Assembly (NCBI GenBank): GCA_025800285.1 | Contig: JAOXRX010000037.1 | Location: forward strand, 52,651 to 116,650 | DNA from: Alphaproteobacteria bacterium | GTDB taxonomy: Bacteria; Pseudomonadota; Alphaproteobacteria; JAOXRX01 | Reading direction: 5' to 3' | DNA: 64,000 nucleotides | Shown here: piece after piece, positions 8,822 through 14,522 of the stretch | How positions within the stretch are numbered: the first letter of the stretch is position 1 | Layout: each line of letters begins with the position of its first letter | The notes under the pieces: generated by a model | Told to the model about the DNA's origin: nothing | What the model saw: the letters and a program-made list of their open reading frames with translations, nothing else | Databases searched by the model: none | Program-made: the position numbers and the translations under genes

Positions 8822-10639
8822 ATGGAATTTAGAAATATAGCAATCATTGCCCATGTTGATCATGGCAAAACCACTCTTGTTGACAATATGCTGAAACAAA
8901 GTGGAGCTTTTGAAGCTCATAAAGAAATGGCTGACAGAGTTATGGACTCTAACGATTTAGAAAAAGAAAGAGGAATAACAATTTCTGCTAAATGCACTTC
9001 AATTGAGTGGAAAAACTATAGAATCAACATTGTTGACACTCCTGGTCATGCTGACTTTGGAGGAGAAGTAGAAAGAATACTAAGTATGGTTGACGGAGTT
9101 GTATTGCTAGTTGATTCTGCAGAAGGATGCCTACCTCAAACTAAATTTGTTTTAACAAAAGCTTTAGGCTTAGGGCTAAAGCCGATGGTAGTTGTAAACA
9201 AAGTTGATAGAGGAGATGCAAGACCTCACGAAGTTCATGATGAAGTTTTCGATTTATTTGACAAAATTGGAGCGAATGACGAACAACTAGACTTCCCAAC
9301 ACTGTTTGCAGTTGGAAGAGATGGTTGGGCTGTGGAAGATTATGAAAATGATACTCCTAAAGATTTGTCCCCGTTATTTGACTTAATAATAGATCATGTT
9401 CCTGCACCAACTTGTGCTCCTGAAAAACCATTTGCTATGCTAACGACTCTTATAGAATCAGATCCTTATGTTGGCAGAGTTCTAACAGGTAAAGTTTATA
9501 ACGGAAACATAAAAGTTGGCTCTCCTATTAAAGCTATCTCTCTTGATGGTAAGACAATAGAACAAGGCAAGGTTACAAAAATTATGGCTTTCCGTGGAGT
9601 AGAAAGAACATCTGTAAGTGAAGCTATCGCTGGAGACATTATTTCTATAGCTGGATTATCAAAAGCAACTGTAGCAGATACAATTTGTGATTTATCAGTA
9701 GAAAAGGCTTTTGAAGCACACCCAATCGATCCTCCTACACTTTCAATGACATTCTCTGTTAACGATTCTCCGTTCGCAGGTCAAGAAGGAGATAAACTTA
9801 CTTCAAGAGTAATTGCAGCAAGATTATTTAAAGAAGCTGAAAGCAATGTAGCTCTAAAAGTTGAAGAAACTGAAGATAAAAATAGCTTTATTGTATCTGG
9901 TCGTGGAGAACTACAATTAGGAGTGCTAATAGAAACTCTTAGAAGAGAAGGATTCGAACTTTCTATCTCAAGACCTCATGTTGTTTATAAATATGAAGAC
10001 GGTCAAAAACTAGAGCCAATTGAAGAAGTTATTATCGATGTTGAAGATGAGTTCTCTGGTATAGTTATTGAGAAAATGAATAAAAGAAAAGGTATTATGT
10101 CAGACTTAAGACCTTCTGGCGATGGAAAAACAAGAATAACATTCTATACTCCATCAAGAGGTCTAATCGGTTATTTATCTGAGTTTAGAACAGATACAAG
10201 AGGAACTGGTGTTATGAATAGATTATTCCATAACTACGAACCGTTTAAAGGAGAAATTGAGAAATATAGATCAGGAGTTCTAATCTCTATGGGAAACGGA
10301 GTCGCAGCTCCATTTGCTTTATTCAACTTAGAAGCAAGAGGTGTAATGTTCATTGATGCTGGTGTAAAAGTTTATGATGGCATGATTATTGGAGAACATT
10401 CTCAAAGCAATGATTTGGAAGTAAACCCTATTAAAGGTAAGCAACTTACAAACATCCGTGCTTCTGGTAAAGATGAGGCTGTTAAGCTTACAACCCCGAT
10501 TACAATGAGCTTAGAAGAGGCAATTTCATACATTCATGATGATGAATTAGTTGAAGTTACTCCTGAGAGTATGAGACTTAGAAAAAAACATTTAAGTGCT
10601 ATTGACAGGAAAAAAGCTTTAAGAGCTAAAAACAAATAG
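8822..10639 (+). CDS. typA: Translational GTPase TypA/BipA
   Basis: 605 aa. N-terminus is AIIAHVDHGKTTLVD, then DTPGHADF and NKVD G-motifs, followed by the C-terminal TypA domain. Confidence 0.95.
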   Translation: MEFRNIAIIAHVDHGKTTLVDNMLKQSGAFEAHKEMADRVMDSNDLEKERGITISAKCTSIEWKNYRINIVDTPGHADFGGEVERILSMVDGVVLLVDSAEGCLPQTKFVLTKALGLGLKPMVVVNKVDRGDARPHEVHDEVFDLFDKIGANDEQLDFPTLFAVGRDGWAVEDYENDTPKDLSPLFDLIIDHVPAPTCAPEKPFAMLTTLIESDPYVGRVLTGKVYNGNIKVGSPIKAISLDGKTIEQGKVTKIMAFRGVERTSVSEAIAGDIISIAGLSKATVADTICDLSVEKAFEAHPIDPPTLSMTFSVNDSPFAGQEGDKLTSRVIAARLFKEAESNVALKVEETEDKNSFIVSGRGELQLGVLIETLRREGFELSISRPHVVYKYEDGQKLEPIEEVIIDVEDEFSGIVIEKMNKRKGIMSDLRPSGDGKTRITFYTPSRGLIGYLSEFRTDTRGTGVMNRLFHNYEPFKGEIEKYRSGVLISMGNGVAAPFALFNLEARGVMFIDAGVKVYDGMIIGEHSQSNDLEVNPIKGKQLTNIRASGKDEAVKLTTPITMSLEEAISYIHDDELVEVTPESMRLRKKHLSAIDRKKALRAKNK

Positions 10640-10695
10640 ATTATAAAAAAGCTTGCATTTTTTATAAAAATGGAGTAGCTTACTGGAATAAATAA

Positions 10696-10720
10696 GGAGA
10701 GGTGGCTGAGTGGCTGAAAA
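10696..10720 (+). other. Orphan duplicate of tRNA-Ser 5' end (28-nt identity including 3 nt upstream)
   Basis: ataaggagaggtggctgagtggctgaaa occurs at 10693-10720 and again at 10873-10900. The first copy does not continue into a tRNA fold. Confidence 0.5.
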
Positions 10721-10875
10721 TACGCTTAGTCTTCTCAAGAAGCAAAGCGACTGCAAGAAGACTTAGTCTTTTGCCCGAATACGAGCCTAAAAGGCGAAGT
10801 ACCGAGGGAAATCGTGGAGCTTTTAAGTTAGAGTTAAATAGTTTTTTAAATCTAGCTTCACAATTGGTTATATAA

Positions 10876-10966
10876 GGAGAGGTGGCTGAGTGGCTGAAAG
10901 CGCGCCCCTGCTAAGGGTGTATAGGGCAACCCCCTATCGAGGGTTCGAATCCCTCTCTCTCCGCCA
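10876..10966 (+). tRNA. tRNA-Ser (anticodon GCU), class II with long variable arm, CCA encoded
   Basis: Hand fold: acceptor GGAGAGG/UCUCUCC; D-arm GCU…AGC; anticodon stem CGCCC/GGGUG with loop CUGCUAA; variable arm; T-arm GAGGG-UUCGAAU-CCCUC; discriminator G plus CCA. Confidence 0.9.
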
Positions 10967-10977
10967 TAAATAAAAAA

Positions 10978-11000
10978 GTCGTGCATAGCACGGCTTTTTT
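10978..11000 (+). terminator. Rho-independent terminator after tRNA-Ser
   Basis: Stem gtcgtgc/gcacggc with loop ata, followed by tttttt. Confidence 0.6.
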
Positions 11001-11149
11001 GTTTATAGGAGTGAAGTTAGGATTAGAAACTTTATGAGTAAATCTTTGATTTACGAATGGTTCGACAATTGAACTTCATTTCATAGGGCAGAGCCCGCAT
11101 GAAATGTTAGTGATTGCAACTTTTGAAGAAACCTTAGTTTCTGATAAAA

Positions 11150-11501
11150 GTAATCCCTCTCTTTACATAATATTTTTCAATTTATATTCGATGAATTAGG
11201 AATAGATAAAATAGCGAAGGAAGTTAATAAACATTTCTCAAATCAAGATATAGACATCATTGTCATAGATCCATGGAGAAATATCTACGAACAAGGATTG
11301 TCAGGAAAAAGCTCTGTCGATCCAAATGCTGATATTATAGCTTTTTTCAAAAGCCGTATTGAAAGTTTGCGAGAAAAAACAAATCCGAATGCTGGAATTG
11401 TGATAGCTCACCATACAAATAAGAACCAAGAATTAGAACACAAAATATTATTAATATATATATTTGTTTTTTCATGGTTGTATTATTACGACCTTTTATA
11501 A
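11150..11501 (+). pseudogene. Fragment of RepA-like / AAA_25-family ATPase (mobile-element replication/primase-associated), degraded
   Basis: The readable frame contains …DIDIIVIDPWRN… (Walker B-like) and …GIVIAHHTNKN… (the HHxxK motif typical of AAA_25/RepA ATPases). There is no intact N-terminus or Walker A. Upstream frames are broken by stops. Confidence 0.35.
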
Positions 11502-11514
11502 TTTAAAATTCTAT

Positions 11515-11895
11515 TCATAACGAAAGTTTGTAATTAATATATATGCTAAAAGACAATATAAAATTGTAATACATAAAGTATATTATAGCCATGCAAAAAT
11601 AATAACCAATACATATGAAGCGACTTTTTAGTTTATTCTTAATATCTAAAACATTATTTTTTGTTTTCCAAAATATAAAGGAATACAAAAAAACAATCAA
11701 AAATATCATAAGTAAAGAAAAATAAACATTAGGGCAATCCCCTTTTATACATACATATTTGTTATAATAATCTTCGTTAAATATAGAAATCATGTAATTT
11801 TTTATGGATATTATACTAATTGTTATAAAACCGAAAAGCCCTAGTATAAAAATTATGCTTGGTATATTATTTGCAATTTTTCTAAATTTATTCAT
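11515..11895 (-). CDS. Small multi-TM membrane protein, hypothetical (candidate immunity protein for upstream toxin-like gene)
   Basis: 126 aa, very hydrophobic with 3-4 predicted TM helices. It lies immediately downstream of the MuF/Tlde1-like gene on the same strand. Confidence 0.4.
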   Translation of the reverse strand: MNKFRKIANNIPSIIFILGLFGFITISIISIKNYMISIFNEDYYNKYVCIKGDCPNVYFSLLMIFLIVFLYSFIFWKTKNNVLDIKNKLKSRFICIGYYFCMAIIYFMYYNFILSFSIYINYKLSL

Positions 11896-11933
11896 AATAA
11901 TAATTGTTTAACATATAGGCTTATATAATGCAA

Positions 11934-12557
11934 TTATTTTTTATATTGAACTATTAAATCAATAGTTCCTATTTCTGATATTGATCTAAATTCTTCTAAA
12001 AAACTTTTTATTTCAGATGTTAGATCTATGCATCCTATAGAACCAGGATATGTACCTCCATGGATAGAAAACCCACTTCTTCCTTTTGTATCAGTTCCCT
12101 TTTTGGGATCAAGCCATACTCTTCCATCTCCCCATGACTTTTCCCCTCCCGGAAAAGTTCCACCATAAAATATACCTTTAAATTTATCCCAATCACTTCT
12201 ATTATCAGTATACTGAATATCAGGTCTTACTTTATATTCTCCTTCAGGAATTGGACCTTTATTTTTTTTATCAGTATCTTCAGGATGTTGATATCCTGGT
12301 TTACCAGAAACACCATTCCAAGATTTAATAACCTCTTCCGCCCAAATGAGTTTTAAAATTTTGCCATTAAATAATAAATAAGGTTTTCCTTCTCTTTGAT
12401 ATATTTTCTTTAAATGGCATCTACAATTTGGATGTATAGGTAGTTTAGGAGCATCTTGCATTTTATCAAACCTTTTTCCTTGATGTTCTTTGCATTTATC
12501 ACAAATATTGTCTCCTTCGTTTTGATAAACCCAATCATAAATTTCATATTGTTGCAT
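11934..12557 (-). CDS. Putative polymorphic-toxin-like protein: MuF-type Zn-ribbon motif (CDKC…HPNCRCH) + L,D-transpeptidase/Tlde1-like C-terminal domain
   Basis: 207 aa. The N-terminal D-x2-C-x2-C…G-x-x-F…LPIHPNCRCH block matches the conserved C-terminal core of phage Mu F / SPP1 gp7 head-morphogenesis proteins. The C-terminal FSIHGGTYPGSIGCIDL block resembles the His/Cys catalytic signature of YkuD-type L,D-transpeptidases and Tlde1 (DUF2778) effectors. Confidence 0.55.
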   Translation of the reverse strand: MQQYEIYDWVYQNEGDNICDKCKEHQGKRFDKMQDAPKLPIHPNCRCHLKKIYQREGKPYLLFNGKILKLIWAEEVIKSWNGVSGKPGYQHPEDTDKKNKGPIPEGEYKVRPDIQYTDNRSDWDKFKGIFYGGTFPGGEKSWGDGRVWLDPKKGTDTKGRSGFSIHGGTYPGSIGCIDLTSEIKSFLEEFRSISEIGTIDLIVQYKK

Positions 12558-13129
12558 TATTTTTCTCCTTTTCTTGAGATTGGTAAATTATTATTTACTT
12601 CTGTTAATTTTTTATCTAAATTAATTTTCTTTTTCCCCCAGCAGTATTCAGCATAAACATTGTTAAAAGCTCCATCCTTAATAGCTCTTTTAATTTCTAA
12701 CAAAGGATAAAAAGAGCAAATTTTTTCTAAAAAAGATTTAGTTTTATTACCTAAAATTCCATCCTCTTTTAGAGCTATGATTTCTGTTATTTGATGTTCT
12801 TTTTTATATCCTGTGAGAATATTTAATCCTCTTTGCAAATCTTTTAAAGCTTGTTCTTTTCCTACTCTCTTTGAATGAGTCTGCAGAAATTCATTTAATT
12901 CAGATATTTTCTCTTTAGTTGAAGAGGGTTTTATTACTTTATTCTCTTTTATTGCTACCACAGGAGGTTCTTCTTCAATTACTTGCTTTTTTAGTTCTGG
13001 TTTTTTAGCGACTTTCTTTATAGGCCTTTCTTCAATACCATATTCTCTTTTTAAAAAGGATTTAATCTCTTGCTCAAAAAGGTGTTGTTTATAAGCCTTT
13101 TTAATATTTTCATAATTAAAATTTATCAT
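12557..13129 (-). CDS. Hypothetical charged protein, translationally coupled (TAATG) to the MuF/Tlde1-like gene
   Basis: 190 aa. Its stop codon overlaps the start of the downstream gene by 1 nt. No recognisable domain. Confidence 0.5.
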   Translation of the reverse strand: MINFNYENIKKAYKQHLFEQEIKSFLKREYGIEERPIKKVAKKPELKKQVIEEEPPVVAIKENKVIKPSSTKEKISELNEFLQTHSKRVGKEQALKDLQRGLNILTGYKKEHQITEIIALKEDGILGNKTKSFLEKICSFYPLLEIKRAIKDGAFNNVYAEYCWGKKKINLDKKLTEVNNNLPISRKGEK

Positions 13130-13350
13130 TATATTTGCTCCAATAAAAAAGCCCTGTCTTGCGACAGAGCATAGGTATTTCTTTTTCTAATTACCTTCTA
13201 TAGGACATTATTCCTAACTTGTCAAGTAAAAAATAATTTATTTGTTTTATTCGCTTTATTGTCTTTTTTGCTGGACTTTCTCTGAAAGTTATGGCTTTGT
13301 TGTGTTGTGCCGCGACTCGAGTCGCTAAAACAACTAAACCAGGAGGATAT

Positions 13351-13440
13351 ATGGAATTAGAGATTAAAAAGAAAGTAGGTTTAAATCTATTTAAAATTCG
13401 CAGAGAAAAGCATTATCAAATTAATTCTGATTACTATTAA
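13351..13440 (+). pseudogene. 29-codon ORF resembling N-terminus of an XRE-family HTH regulator (probable remnant)
   Basis: A perfect AGGAGG at 13341-13346 precedes ATG 13351. The peptide MELEIKKKVGLNLFKIRREKHYQ… resembles the start of an XRE HTH and then terminates. Confidence 0.25.
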
Positions 13441-13592
13441 AGACTGCATACAAAATATAATTTTAGCATATTATTATAATTAACTTTCTCACAATATTAA
13501 AAAAGTTGCAAACATGCTAATTTTATGATATATTAACAGTGCACAGAACAAAGATTGTTTTATAATTAAACAAAATTAAGGAGATAAAAAAT

Positions 13593-14522
13593 ATGTTAAA
13601 GATGAGCGAAAACAAAAAAATAGATACTACTTTAACAACTGTTTTATTAGCTGGGGTTTTTGCAGTAGGAAAGAAACATAAAGGCTTTATTCCCGAAGCA
13701 GAAATGAATTTATTAAAAGACTCTTTAGAAAGAGTTAAAAGTGCTAGCATTTTACATAGAGGTGTATCCCTTTTAGGAACTAAAACACCAGGATTTGCTA
13801 TAAAAATTCTAGATACTTTTTCTCATGGATTAGCATATCAGTATGCAGAAAGAAATAGAATATTTCGTGAACAATTCTCTCAAATGCACAGCATTTATGG
13901 CTCAGACTTATCTATAGTAAATTTAAGGGCTGGTCTTGATTTTATACCGGATTTATATGCTTATAATAACAATTTAGAAACTATAAATATTGATAGCGAG
14001 GAAATTTTAAGTCAAAGAAAATGGTTATTGCAAGAGAAAAGACCTGAGCTATTCTATAACTCTAAAGAAGTTCCTTTGAACTTATCATTGGAGAATGATA
14101 TTTCTAAAATACAAAACTTTTTAAAAGATAAACCAACTTTAGTTATGGCTAAAGGATTGTTTCCATATTTAGAACATGATAAAGTTAAGCTTATTTTACA
14201 AGAAATAGCAAAATCACCTAAACCATCAATGCTTACATGCTCTTTTTTAAATTCTTTAAATGGAAATACAAAAACTAAAAAAGAGGAATCTACTAAACAA
14301 AGCATGAATTATAAATCAGCTTGGAGCCCTAAAGATTTTACAGCATTAGCAACAAGCTTAGGCATGCAGGTTCAATTTGCACTAAAAGCCTCAACTTGGA
14401 TGAGTGAAGCTATAATAAAATCTGGAAAAATAAACCCTCAGCAATTAGATGAAACTTGGGATATAGAAAACATGGCGACAATATCTAATGCAAGACATTC
14501 ATATATACCTTCAATTAGTTAA
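13593..14522 (+). CDS. Hypothetical protein (weak resemblance to leucine-carboxyl/TcmP-type SAM methyltransferases)
   Basis: 309 aa with an AAGGAG RBS 9 nt upstream. Segments IVNLRAGLDFIP and YLEHDKVKLILQEIA loosely fit LCM-family motifs. This assignment is not secure. Confidence 0.55.
   Translation: MLKMSENKKIDTTLTTVLLAGVFAVGKKHKGFIPEAEMNLLKDSLERVKSASILHRGVSLLGTKTPGFAIKILDTFSHGLAYQYAERNRIFREQFSQMHSIYGSDLSIVNLRAGLDFIPDLYAYNNNLETINIDSEEILSQRKWLLQEKRPELFYNSKEVPLNLSLENDISKIQNFLKDKPTLVMAKGLFPYLEHDKVKLILQEIAKSPKPSMLTCSFLNSLNGNTKTKKEESTKQSMNYKSAWSPKDFTALATSLGMQVQFALKASTWMSEAIIKSGKINPQQLDETWDIENMATISNARHSYIPSIS

Follow-up and report, generated by a model that had tools for sequence, protein, structure and literature searches.

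Analysis of a 64,000-nucleotide stretch of an alphaproteobacterial genome (contig JAOXRX010000037.1, referred to below as the window) points to a three-gene module on the minus strand, at positions 11515-13129, that we read, with a probability of roughly 70%, as a polymorphic toxin-immunity cassette directed against the cell wall, one that is intact, lies on the chromosome and is independent of phages. The module encodes a 190-residue partner protein, a 207-residue putative toxin that joins a short MuF-type motif to a Tlde1-type domain, and a 126-residue membrane protein that is a candidate for the immunity function. The partner stop codon and the toxin start codon share the sequence TAATG (about 12555-12559), and the Shine-Dalgarno sequence of the toxin gene lies 8 nt before its start codon, inside the partner open reading frame (ORF). 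The three ORFs, this coupling and the motifs quoted in the first-pass annotation, an earlier reading of the same DNA, are all present. The parts of the cassette are as follows.

12557..13129, minus strand: partner gene, 190 aa (ORF of the window)
12565..12570, minus strand: Shine-Dalgarno sequence AAGGAG of the toxin gene, within the 3' part of the partner ORF (read directly from the sequence)
11934..12557, minus strand: toxin gene, 207 aa (ORF of the window)
12393..12557, minus strand: minimal MuF-type module, toxin residues 1-55, with C19, C22, C45 and C47 plus H42/H48 (Phage_Mu_F, TIGR01641 and PHROG matches)
11937..12386, minus strand: Tlde1-type L,D-transpeptidase-fold domain, toxin residues ~58-207 (Pfam, AlphaFold2, Foldseek and profile)
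12060-12062, minus strand: codon of toxin His166, catalytic-type
12030-12032, minus strand: codon of toxin Cys176, catalytic-type
11515..11895, minus strand: candidate immunity gene, 126 aa (ORF of the window)

The C-terminal part of the toxin is a predicted Tlde1-type L,D-transpeptidase fold with a His...Ser-x-Gly-Cys motif. The Pfam family Tlde1_dom (PF10908, DUF2778) covers residues 84-184 with an E-value of 1.1e-7 and 32.7 bits (gathering score 30.1), and NCBI holds an identical 207-aa protein, named 'DUF2778 domain-containing protein', from a 247.8-kb contig of an alphaproteobacterial metagenome-assembled genome (MAG). The AlphaFold2 model of the toxin, generated from 120 homologs, has a mean predicted local distance difference test score of 88.2. 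Its top Foldseek matches in the PDB are the structures of Tlde1a (7uo3, 7uo8 and 7uma; E ~2e-8, target-normalised template modelling score 0.62), with YkuD and mycobacterial L,D-transpeptidases (LdtMt2) ranking next. A phmmer search of the PDB sequences with the toxin alone gave nothing meaningful, and Tlde1a was found only with a profile, that of the 120 homologs recovering it with an E-value of 1.3e-9. In this profile H166, S173, G175 and C176 of the toxin, all four invariant among the 120 homologs, align with H121, S128, G130 and C131 of Tlde1a, which are residues of its catalytic motif (PMC9638812). The motif region reads F163-SIHGG-x6-S173-I-G-C176-IDL (H166-GGTYPG-S173-I-G-C176 for the catalytic stretch), with S-I-G-C where YkuD enzymes have S-H-G-C, and the 207-aa protein does not match YkuD (PF03734) at E-values up to 10. 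Profile matches, a structural match to Tlde1a and YkuD enzymes and the invariant His and Cys all speak for the domain call made earlier. The glycine-rich loop that had been taken as a sign of periplasmic activity turns out to be the conserved W-P-G-G...W-G-x-x-R segment of the Tlde1 clade, which by itself is silent on localisation.

The N-terminal ~50 residues of the toxin are homologous to the C-terminal Cys/His core of the MuF/SPP1 gp7 proteins. The motif of this module, C19-x2-C22...H42-P-N-C45-R-C47, lies within residues 6-49, which match positions 64-111 of the 112 of Phage_Mu_F. TIGR01641 (SPP1_gp7) matches with an E-value of 6e-4 and 20.1 bits (threshold 39.65), and over ten PHROG families of head-morphogenesis or minor-head proteins match the same N-terminal residues. 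Within the 64-kb window the Cys4 motif is unique to the toxin; as C-x2-C...HP-x-C-x-C it recurs in 11 of the 120 nearest Tlde1 relatives, starting 17-96 residues from the N-terminus. In an alignment of ten modules C19, C22, G27, P40, H42, P43, N44, C45 and C47 are invariant, and all but one of the ten match Phage_Mu_F (best E 5e-7). The Cys4 module is predicted to bind zinc. A scan of viral contigs with the module returned 70 phage loci with 68 motif-bearing ORFs; with a handful of exceptions these have the motif start about 140-630 residues in, where a full-length MuF domain ends. The toxin thus carries at its N-terminus what forms the C-terminal core of MuF in phages. Its short MuF piece is a conserved module and not a truncation, since the partner loci repeat the Cys4 motif and partner, motif and toxin are fused in one chain elsewhere. 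Accordingly, the first-pass annotation was right to see a MuF/SPP1 gp7 core joined to a Tlde1/L,D-transpeptidase fold in the 207-aa protein, with Tlde1_dom matched above and Phage_Mu_F below its gathering score, and wrong to call the MuF part reduced and the module a remnant, the ~50-residue N-terminal motif being the conserved form across many intact cassettes.

The 190-aa partner had been described as an orphan; it belongs instead to a conserved family that is encoded next to, or fused with, a MuF motif in all loci read. This family is rare and patchy in distribution, with 75 clusters in an exhaustive HMMER search of 1.84 billion representatives. A word-index search gave six relatives, two of them in the same MAG (OIF36_04105 and OIF36_04700), which contains at least three partner paralogs, and a metagenome scan with the partner gave only two loci, one of them a duplicate. 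The protein begins with a helix, which a K/E/P-rich linker joins to a helical PG_binding_3-like domain at the C-terminus (residues ~71-181); residues 1-70 were modelled as one helix followed by a low-confidence, likely disordered linker. It has no signal peptide, lipobox, transmembrane (TM) segment or hydrolase domain and does not match Glyco_hydro_108.

Proof of the partner domain as PG_binding_1 or PG_binding_3 at the sequence level was sought and failed: the 190-aa protein has no Pfam match (PF09374 and PF01471 included) and no match in a PDB sequence search, and its hhalign comparison with a small PG_binding_1 alignment is not significant (E 0.1). The PG_binding_3-like assignment is therefore made with moderate, not firm, confidence, on the basis of structure and of the repeat-bearing relative P0129, whose four partner-domain repeats score 56.1 bits with PG_binding_3 (cut-off 24.6) and 38 with PG_binding_1 (cut-off 23); another relative, P0183, scores 17 bits. 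Many other members of the Tlde1 clade carry PG_binding_1 or LysM in cis, which fits wall binding supplied in trans by the partner. One further clade member, P0107, carries PF25023, which we take to be an Rhs/YD-shell-type domain. The idea that the partner is the missing N-terminal part of a split MuF protein was not supported: hhalign of the partner family against the region preceding the motif in 46 phage MuF proteins gave a probability of 0.1%, and when partner and toxin were concatenated the Phage_Mu_F match crossed the junction in one case out of four (L014, profile positions 11-109).

Nine partner loci have a readable context, namely the window, L011 from the same sample, L012, L093, L013-L016 from Gastranaerophilales and other MAGs, and L088. 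At all nine, the partner gene overlaps the next gene or ends no more than 4 nt before it, and this next gene encodes a protein with an N-terminal MuF motif. The cargo behind the motif is Tlde1 in the window, Phage_lysozyme (81 bits) in L012 and L093, and a prok-SAA/Lipocone domain in L013-L016 and L088, as well as in L011, where it is split into two ORFs; the SAA profile scores 29.6-35.8 bits there and 75-77 bits in fused relatives. P0138, P0155, P0179 and P0183 are single polypeptides that combine the partner domain with the MuF motif and a toxin domain; in P0129, P0188 and P0199 a canonical MuF C-terminal motif comes directly after the partner domain, and Phage_Mu_F matches these proteins above its gathering score (37-48 bits). 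The fusions of partner and motif in other genomes indicate that the two form one functional unit. Tlde1, lysozyme, prok-SAA or a C-terminus of no recognised family can follow the same N-terminal module, in agreement with the polymorphic-toxin framing given to the module earlier, and the combination of one partner-motif unit with unrelated lytic cargo and changing downstream proteins is a polymorphic-toxin signature.

Three of the related loci have features of their own. The second cassette of the same MAG (L011, 2242-2903) consists of the partner, a 97-aa ORF with the MuF motif and a coiled coil, and a 121-aa prok-SAA ORF, followed by two small Cys-rich TM ORFs; it is a split counterpart to the MuF-prok-SAA toxins that are single chains in L013-L016. 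L005, an 18-kb metagenome contig, is a textbook polymorphic-toxin array: it has two short-MuF toxins in tandem (6738-8896 and 9293-11450) and no partner gene, a 351-aa toxin whose C-terminal domain is without an assigned family being followed by two multi-TM proteins, and a MuF-Tlde1 toxin by two paralogous TM-anchored proteins of 195 and 200 aa. In L092, P0129 (8001-11012; 1003 aa) combines LysM repeats, four PG_binding_3 partner-type repeats and, at the C-terminus, a canonical MuF motif; directly upstream of it (1556-7842) lie six almost identical lipoprotein genes in tandem, of 245 aa each and at a regular 1.1-kb spacing, and a relaxase-like gene comes after it.

The 126-aa protein encoded after the toxin has three TM segments (hydrophobic stretches 13-31, 57-75 and 100-118). 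Its loop 32-56, which contains Cys49 and Cys54, is predicted to be periplasmic on account of the basic N-terminus and the Lys-rich 76-99 loop, following the positive-inside rule. The protein has no significant Pfam or NCBIfam match. The closest relative of the toxin, P0002 (43% identity), is followed 4 nt downstream by a 124-aa homolog of the 126-aa protein (BLASTP E 4e-8 and 34.7 bits, against 13.3 +/- 2.6 and at most 21.9 in 200 shuffles). This supports the immunity role that the first-pass annotation had proposed from gene position, and makes the 126-aa gene a credible candidate immunity gene as judged from sequence. Behind MuF-Tlde1 toxins that are less closely related come other small membrane proteins, some of them in tandem (L004, L005 and L089), for which no relationship to the 126-aa protein was detected. 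The L012 lysozyme cassette is followed by a Sel1-repeat protein whose N-terminus has a hydrophobic segment, taken for a signal peptide, and the prok-SAA cassettes by TM-anchored Cys-rich proteins. A single immunity family for all cassettes was considered and rejected, as hhalign of four groups of downstream membrane proteins related only those of the window and L009. All the downstream proteins of the cassettes are nonetheless membrane or signal-peptide proteins, which fits a periplasmic action of the cargo; a periplasmic action of prok-SAA toxins has likewise been argued from their immunity proteins (PMC12419801). Position, small size, fast turnover, duplication and extracytoplasmic topology commonly mark immunity genes, and they speak for an action of all three cargo types outside the cytoplasm.

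A 247-aa protein of L090 (4659-5402; MT837095, an unverified 'Bacteriophage sp.' record) has an N-terminal membrane region that resembles the 'DDYY...W-G' immunity proteins of L001 and L004, followed by a Tlde1-like domain in which the catalytic Cys position is lost ('HGGTKNSSPWGIDM'). This could be a toxin domain that has lost its activity and been co-opted as an immunity decoy.

In the mechanism that we propose, the partner would bind peptidoglycan and act as a wall-binding subunit in trans, forming one unit with the Cys4 module of the toxin, and this putatively zinc-binding module would be a conserved trafficking or assembly handle. Helped by the partner, the toxin would reach the periplasm of a target cell, where the thiol of Cys176, with His166, would attack the peptide stems of peptidoglycan and cut or exchange the terminal D-amino acid. 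The chemistry would be that of an L,D-carboxypeptidase or a D-amino-acid exchange as in Tlde1a, and wall homeostasis would be disturbed. Producer and kin would be shielded by the 126-aa inner-membrane protein, by means of the Cys-containing loop on its periplasmic side. A bolder proposal, which we regard as unlikely, is that the partner and the minimal Cys4 MuF motif constitute a previously unrecognised, phage-independent trafficking or anchoring unit and thus a new class of delivery for envelope cargo in diderms; as a corollary, the C-terminal core of phage MuF may have a role at the envelope or peptidoglycan during ejection and not solely in capsid targeting.

The surroundings of the cassette add three features.

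13151..13170, minus strand: terminator-like hairpin with a T-run, at the upstream edge of the cassette
11140..11501, plus strand: truncated AAA-ATPase pseudogene fragment ('DIDIIVIDPW...IVIAHHTNK'), in the gap between the tRNA and the cassette (frame translation and tblastn)
10876..10966, plus strand: tRNA-Ser(GCT), ~550 nt past the end of the cassette

The AAA-ATPase fragment has no Pfam match; a tblastn match (E 1e-4) to an AAA family ATPase annotated on a plasmid of Eleftheria terrae suggests the trace of a decayed mobile element. Since this pseudogene lies beside tRNA-Ser, the cassette probably arrived there on an integrative element that has since decayed, and is its surviving cargo. The sole candidate for flanking direct repeats of an attachment site, an A-rich repeat of 15 nt (10969 and 13142, 87% identity), was judged to be due to chance. 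The other neighbours are housekeeping genes, TypA on the tRNA side and an LCM-type methyltransferase, IspA and XseB on the other (TypA, IspA and XseB assigned by eye from the window translations), with FabF, LigA, GyrB, LeuRS and SufB farther out in the window. The methyltransferase, a 309-aa ORF at 13593-14522 on the plus strand that belongs to the Leucine carboxyl methyltransferase (LCM) family (E 2.5e-8), diverges from the cassette and is probably unrelated to it. The hairpin is strong and lies ~10 nt upstream of the ribosome-binding site of the partner gene; the best promoter-like site is ~340 nt upstream of the hairpin. The leader at 13120-13480 has no Rfam match and a fold z-score of only -1.6, which is not significant, so that the idea of a regulatory leader upstream of the partner was dropped and no regulatory element is claimed there.

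Several observations weigh against a functional wall-directed cassette as we read it. The Phage_Mu_F match is below threshold, with 17.2 bits for the whole toxin and 21.2 bits for the isolated module against a gathering score of 29.6. Beyond the neighbour of P0002, the 126-aa protein has no relative in 5.8 billion clusters. In Tlde1a, H129 orients D-Ala4 in the catalytic pocket, and its mutation spares D-amino-acid exchange while lowering the other activities (PMC9638812). The equivalent position is Ile174 in the toxin; across the clade it is Ala in 72 proteins, Ile in 42 and His in none, so that the chemistry of the toxin may differ from that of Tlde1a. Both toxin and partner lack a signal peptide, and no type VI secretion system (T6SS) or other delivery gene is found among the ten large window ORFs tested, the cassette neighbours or the related loci; that the toxin reaches the periplasm of a target is therefore something we purely infer. 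Finally, with a tRNA and a pseudogene fragment as its neighbours, the cassette may be the silent cargo of an element that has decayed.

The homology of the N-terminal module to the MuF/gp7 core, with head-morphogenesis proteins as its best matches in deposited phages, also allows the toxin to be seen as a classical phage MuF toxin or a virion-associated, wall-degrading ejection protein, and the cassette as the leftover of a prophage head module. MuF would then guide packing into the capsids of a resident phage or gene transfer agent, and ejection into the envelope of a recipient would aid DNA entry or kill non-lysogens. MuF toxins have been proposed to be targeted to capsids (PMC3482391, PMC5576092, PMC11699363) and virion proteins with wall-degrading domains are known (PMC5512222); the adjoining tRNA-Ser and pseudogene are typical of a decayed integrative element, and packaging in trans by a phage or gene transfer agent elsewhere in the genome is conceivable. 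However, 96% of classical muf genes lie within prophages or prophage remnants (PMC5576092), whereas no portal, terminase or capsid gene is present among the ten large window ORFs and the cassette neighbours, and no phage genes occur at any related locus examined. The partner and the close relatives of the toxin are absent from 2.9 million viral contigs (IMG/VR) and 50,697 phage records, and no phage record has the two parts of the toxin together; the two 'Bacteriophage sp.' records that match Tlde1 are unverified contigs with bacterial genes and without the MuF motif. Moreover, the motif is C-terminal to a full MuF domain, not N-terminal, in nearly all of the phage ORFs, and the minimal three-part layout is intact in unrelated lineages, unlike what decay would leave. 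We therefore consider a phage origin of this kind unlikely, and the earlier description of the toxin as phage-borne does not stand.

That the enzyme has the fold and catalytic motif of L,D-transpeptidases, and that its flanking genes are housekeeping genes, could also be explained by a wall-remodelling module of the host, in which an endogenous L,D-transpeptidase or carboxypeptidase works with a peptidoglycan-binding subunit and a membrane regulator. Such enzymes commonly come with LysM or PG_binding domains, and source databases name some clade members 'L,D-transpeptidase family protein'. Yet the toxin has no Sec signal, lipobox or hydrophobic N-terminus, the partner likewise lacks export signals, and a hydrophobic N-terminal segment is found in just one of the 120 clade members, so that Sec export is not a feature of the clade as a whole, as it is of housekeeping L,D-transpeptidases. 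The best structural matches are to a T6SS effector rather than to YkuD, the partner-motif unit carries unrelated lysozyme and prok-SAA domains before varying downstream proteins, and a rare and patchy family with several differing copies per genome is not what a housekeeping role would predict; we regard this explanation as highly improbable. Hardly better placed is the view that the cassette was carried by an island that decayed and has itself ceased to be expressed or to function. The truncated AAA-ATPase, the hairpin directly upstream of the partner ribosome-binding site, promoter-like sites that are no commoner than in shuffled sequence and the G+C content of the immunity gene (only 20%) would agree with it. 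Against this, the three ORFs are intact, with a conserved Shine-Dalgarno sequence and start/stop overlap, all invariant catalytic and Cys4 residues are retained, the G+C content of the toxin gene (31%) equals the window mean (31.5%), and an identical copy of the cassette was assembled independently from a read set. A dead cassette thus seems very unlikely, and the intact, wall-directed toxin-immunity cassette remains the reading that we prefer.

Among known systems, the toxin is closest to Tlde1a of Salmonella Typhimurium, an L,D-transpeptidase-like T6SS effector paired with the immunity protein Tldi1a (PMC9638812; PDB 7UMA, 7UO3 and 7UO8). The two share the fold, the Pfam family, the 10-residue spacing between His and Cys, the Ser-x-Gly-Cys motif, the lack of a signal peptide and an adjacent protector gene whose product acts, or would act, outside the cytoplasm. 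They differ in sequence (~22% identity) and in the replacement of the second pocket His (H129) by Ile, and, unlike Tlde1a, the toxin of the window has an N-terminal MuF-type Cys4 module and a peptidoglycan-binding-like partner, with no T6SS genes nearby. Tldi1 is described as Sec-exported, whereas the 126-aa protein has three TM segments and belongs to no recognisable family.

With the phage MuF toxins (Zhang et al. 2012, PMC3482391; Jamet et al. 2017, PMC5576092; Apk2 and Bxa, PMC11699363), whose delivery and biological role are unsettled even for the two characterised members (PMC11699363), the toxin shares the Cys/His core, a MuF-derived conserved N-terminus with a variable C-terminal toxin domain, and a small downstream ORF of less than 150 aa as the presumed immunity gene. 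Two other defining features fail, so that it is not a member of the classical group: instead of a full MuF domain of ~200-320 aa it has only the last ~50 residues, and it has no phage context, where classical genes belong to prophage head modules and follow directly on the portal gene. Classical MuF toxins are further enriched in Firmicutes, and those characterised act in the cytoplasm, whereas the cargo here is predicted to be envelope-directed and the toxin gene is preceded by that of a dedicated PG_binding_3-like partner.

The partner resembles the binding part of the muramidases SagA, TtsA and NMB1012, which we take to be members of the GH108 family, and presumably shares with that part the 'DG-x-x-G-x-x-T' motif of PG_binding_3. 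Unlike them, it lacks an N-terminal hydrolase domain with the Glu/Asp/Thr catalytic residues, has no TM anchor or signal peptide, and is always coupled to a MuF-motif toxin. The likeness lies in the partner-domain repeats, which are called PG_binding_3, and in the C-terminal peptidoglycan-binding domains of Brucella SagA (7DNP), Salmonella TtsA/Sen1395 (6V3Z) and Neisseria NMB1012 (2IKB; PMC8334348).

The sister cassettes L011, L013-L016, L088, P0138 and P0179 correspond to the MuF-prok-SAA fusions followed by a TM-anchored four-cysteine protein ('Imm-SAA') that were catalogued in the Lipocone survey (eLife 2025), where periplasmic or membrane action was inferred for them (PMC12419801 and supplement); the window differs from these in cargo and immunity family. 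As the survey gives nothing upstream of or N-terminal to MuF, the PG_binding_3-like partner is unrecorded there, and Tlde1/DUF2778 is not mentioned (PMC12419801). In the literature searched, no paper names both 'MuF' and 'Tlde1'. The Tlde1 cargo and the peptidoglycan-binding partner thus appear undescribed before, the MuF-prok-SAA sisters having been catalogued in 2025; new here are the Tlde1 cargo, the immunity family, the partner and a minimal MuF branch that is not linked to phages.

The cassette reduces such a system to a 50-residue motif, predicted to bind zinc, and a dedicated peptidoglycan-binding-like partner, on chromosomes without phage genes nearby. With cargo that appears to target the envelope in every case, it offers a small, tractable three-gene setting in which to ask what the MuF core motif does, and it would give Tlde1-type wall toxins a new carrier that is not part of type VI secretion. 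A Tlde1 clade without the second pocket His should also inform the question of carboxypeptidase versus exchange mechanism.

A short N-terminal motif, 'PVDATGRMIRD' or 'DATGQYIEPEY', which is absent from the proteins of the window, begins several other MuF-motif toxins or a small ORF just upstream of them. It occurs at residues 9-20 of P0002 and 8-19 of P0183, and at 9641-9970 of L001 and 121-282 of L004; in P0004 the small upstream ORF with the motif is fused to the toxin. This 'DATG' motif could be a second kind of N-terminal handle.

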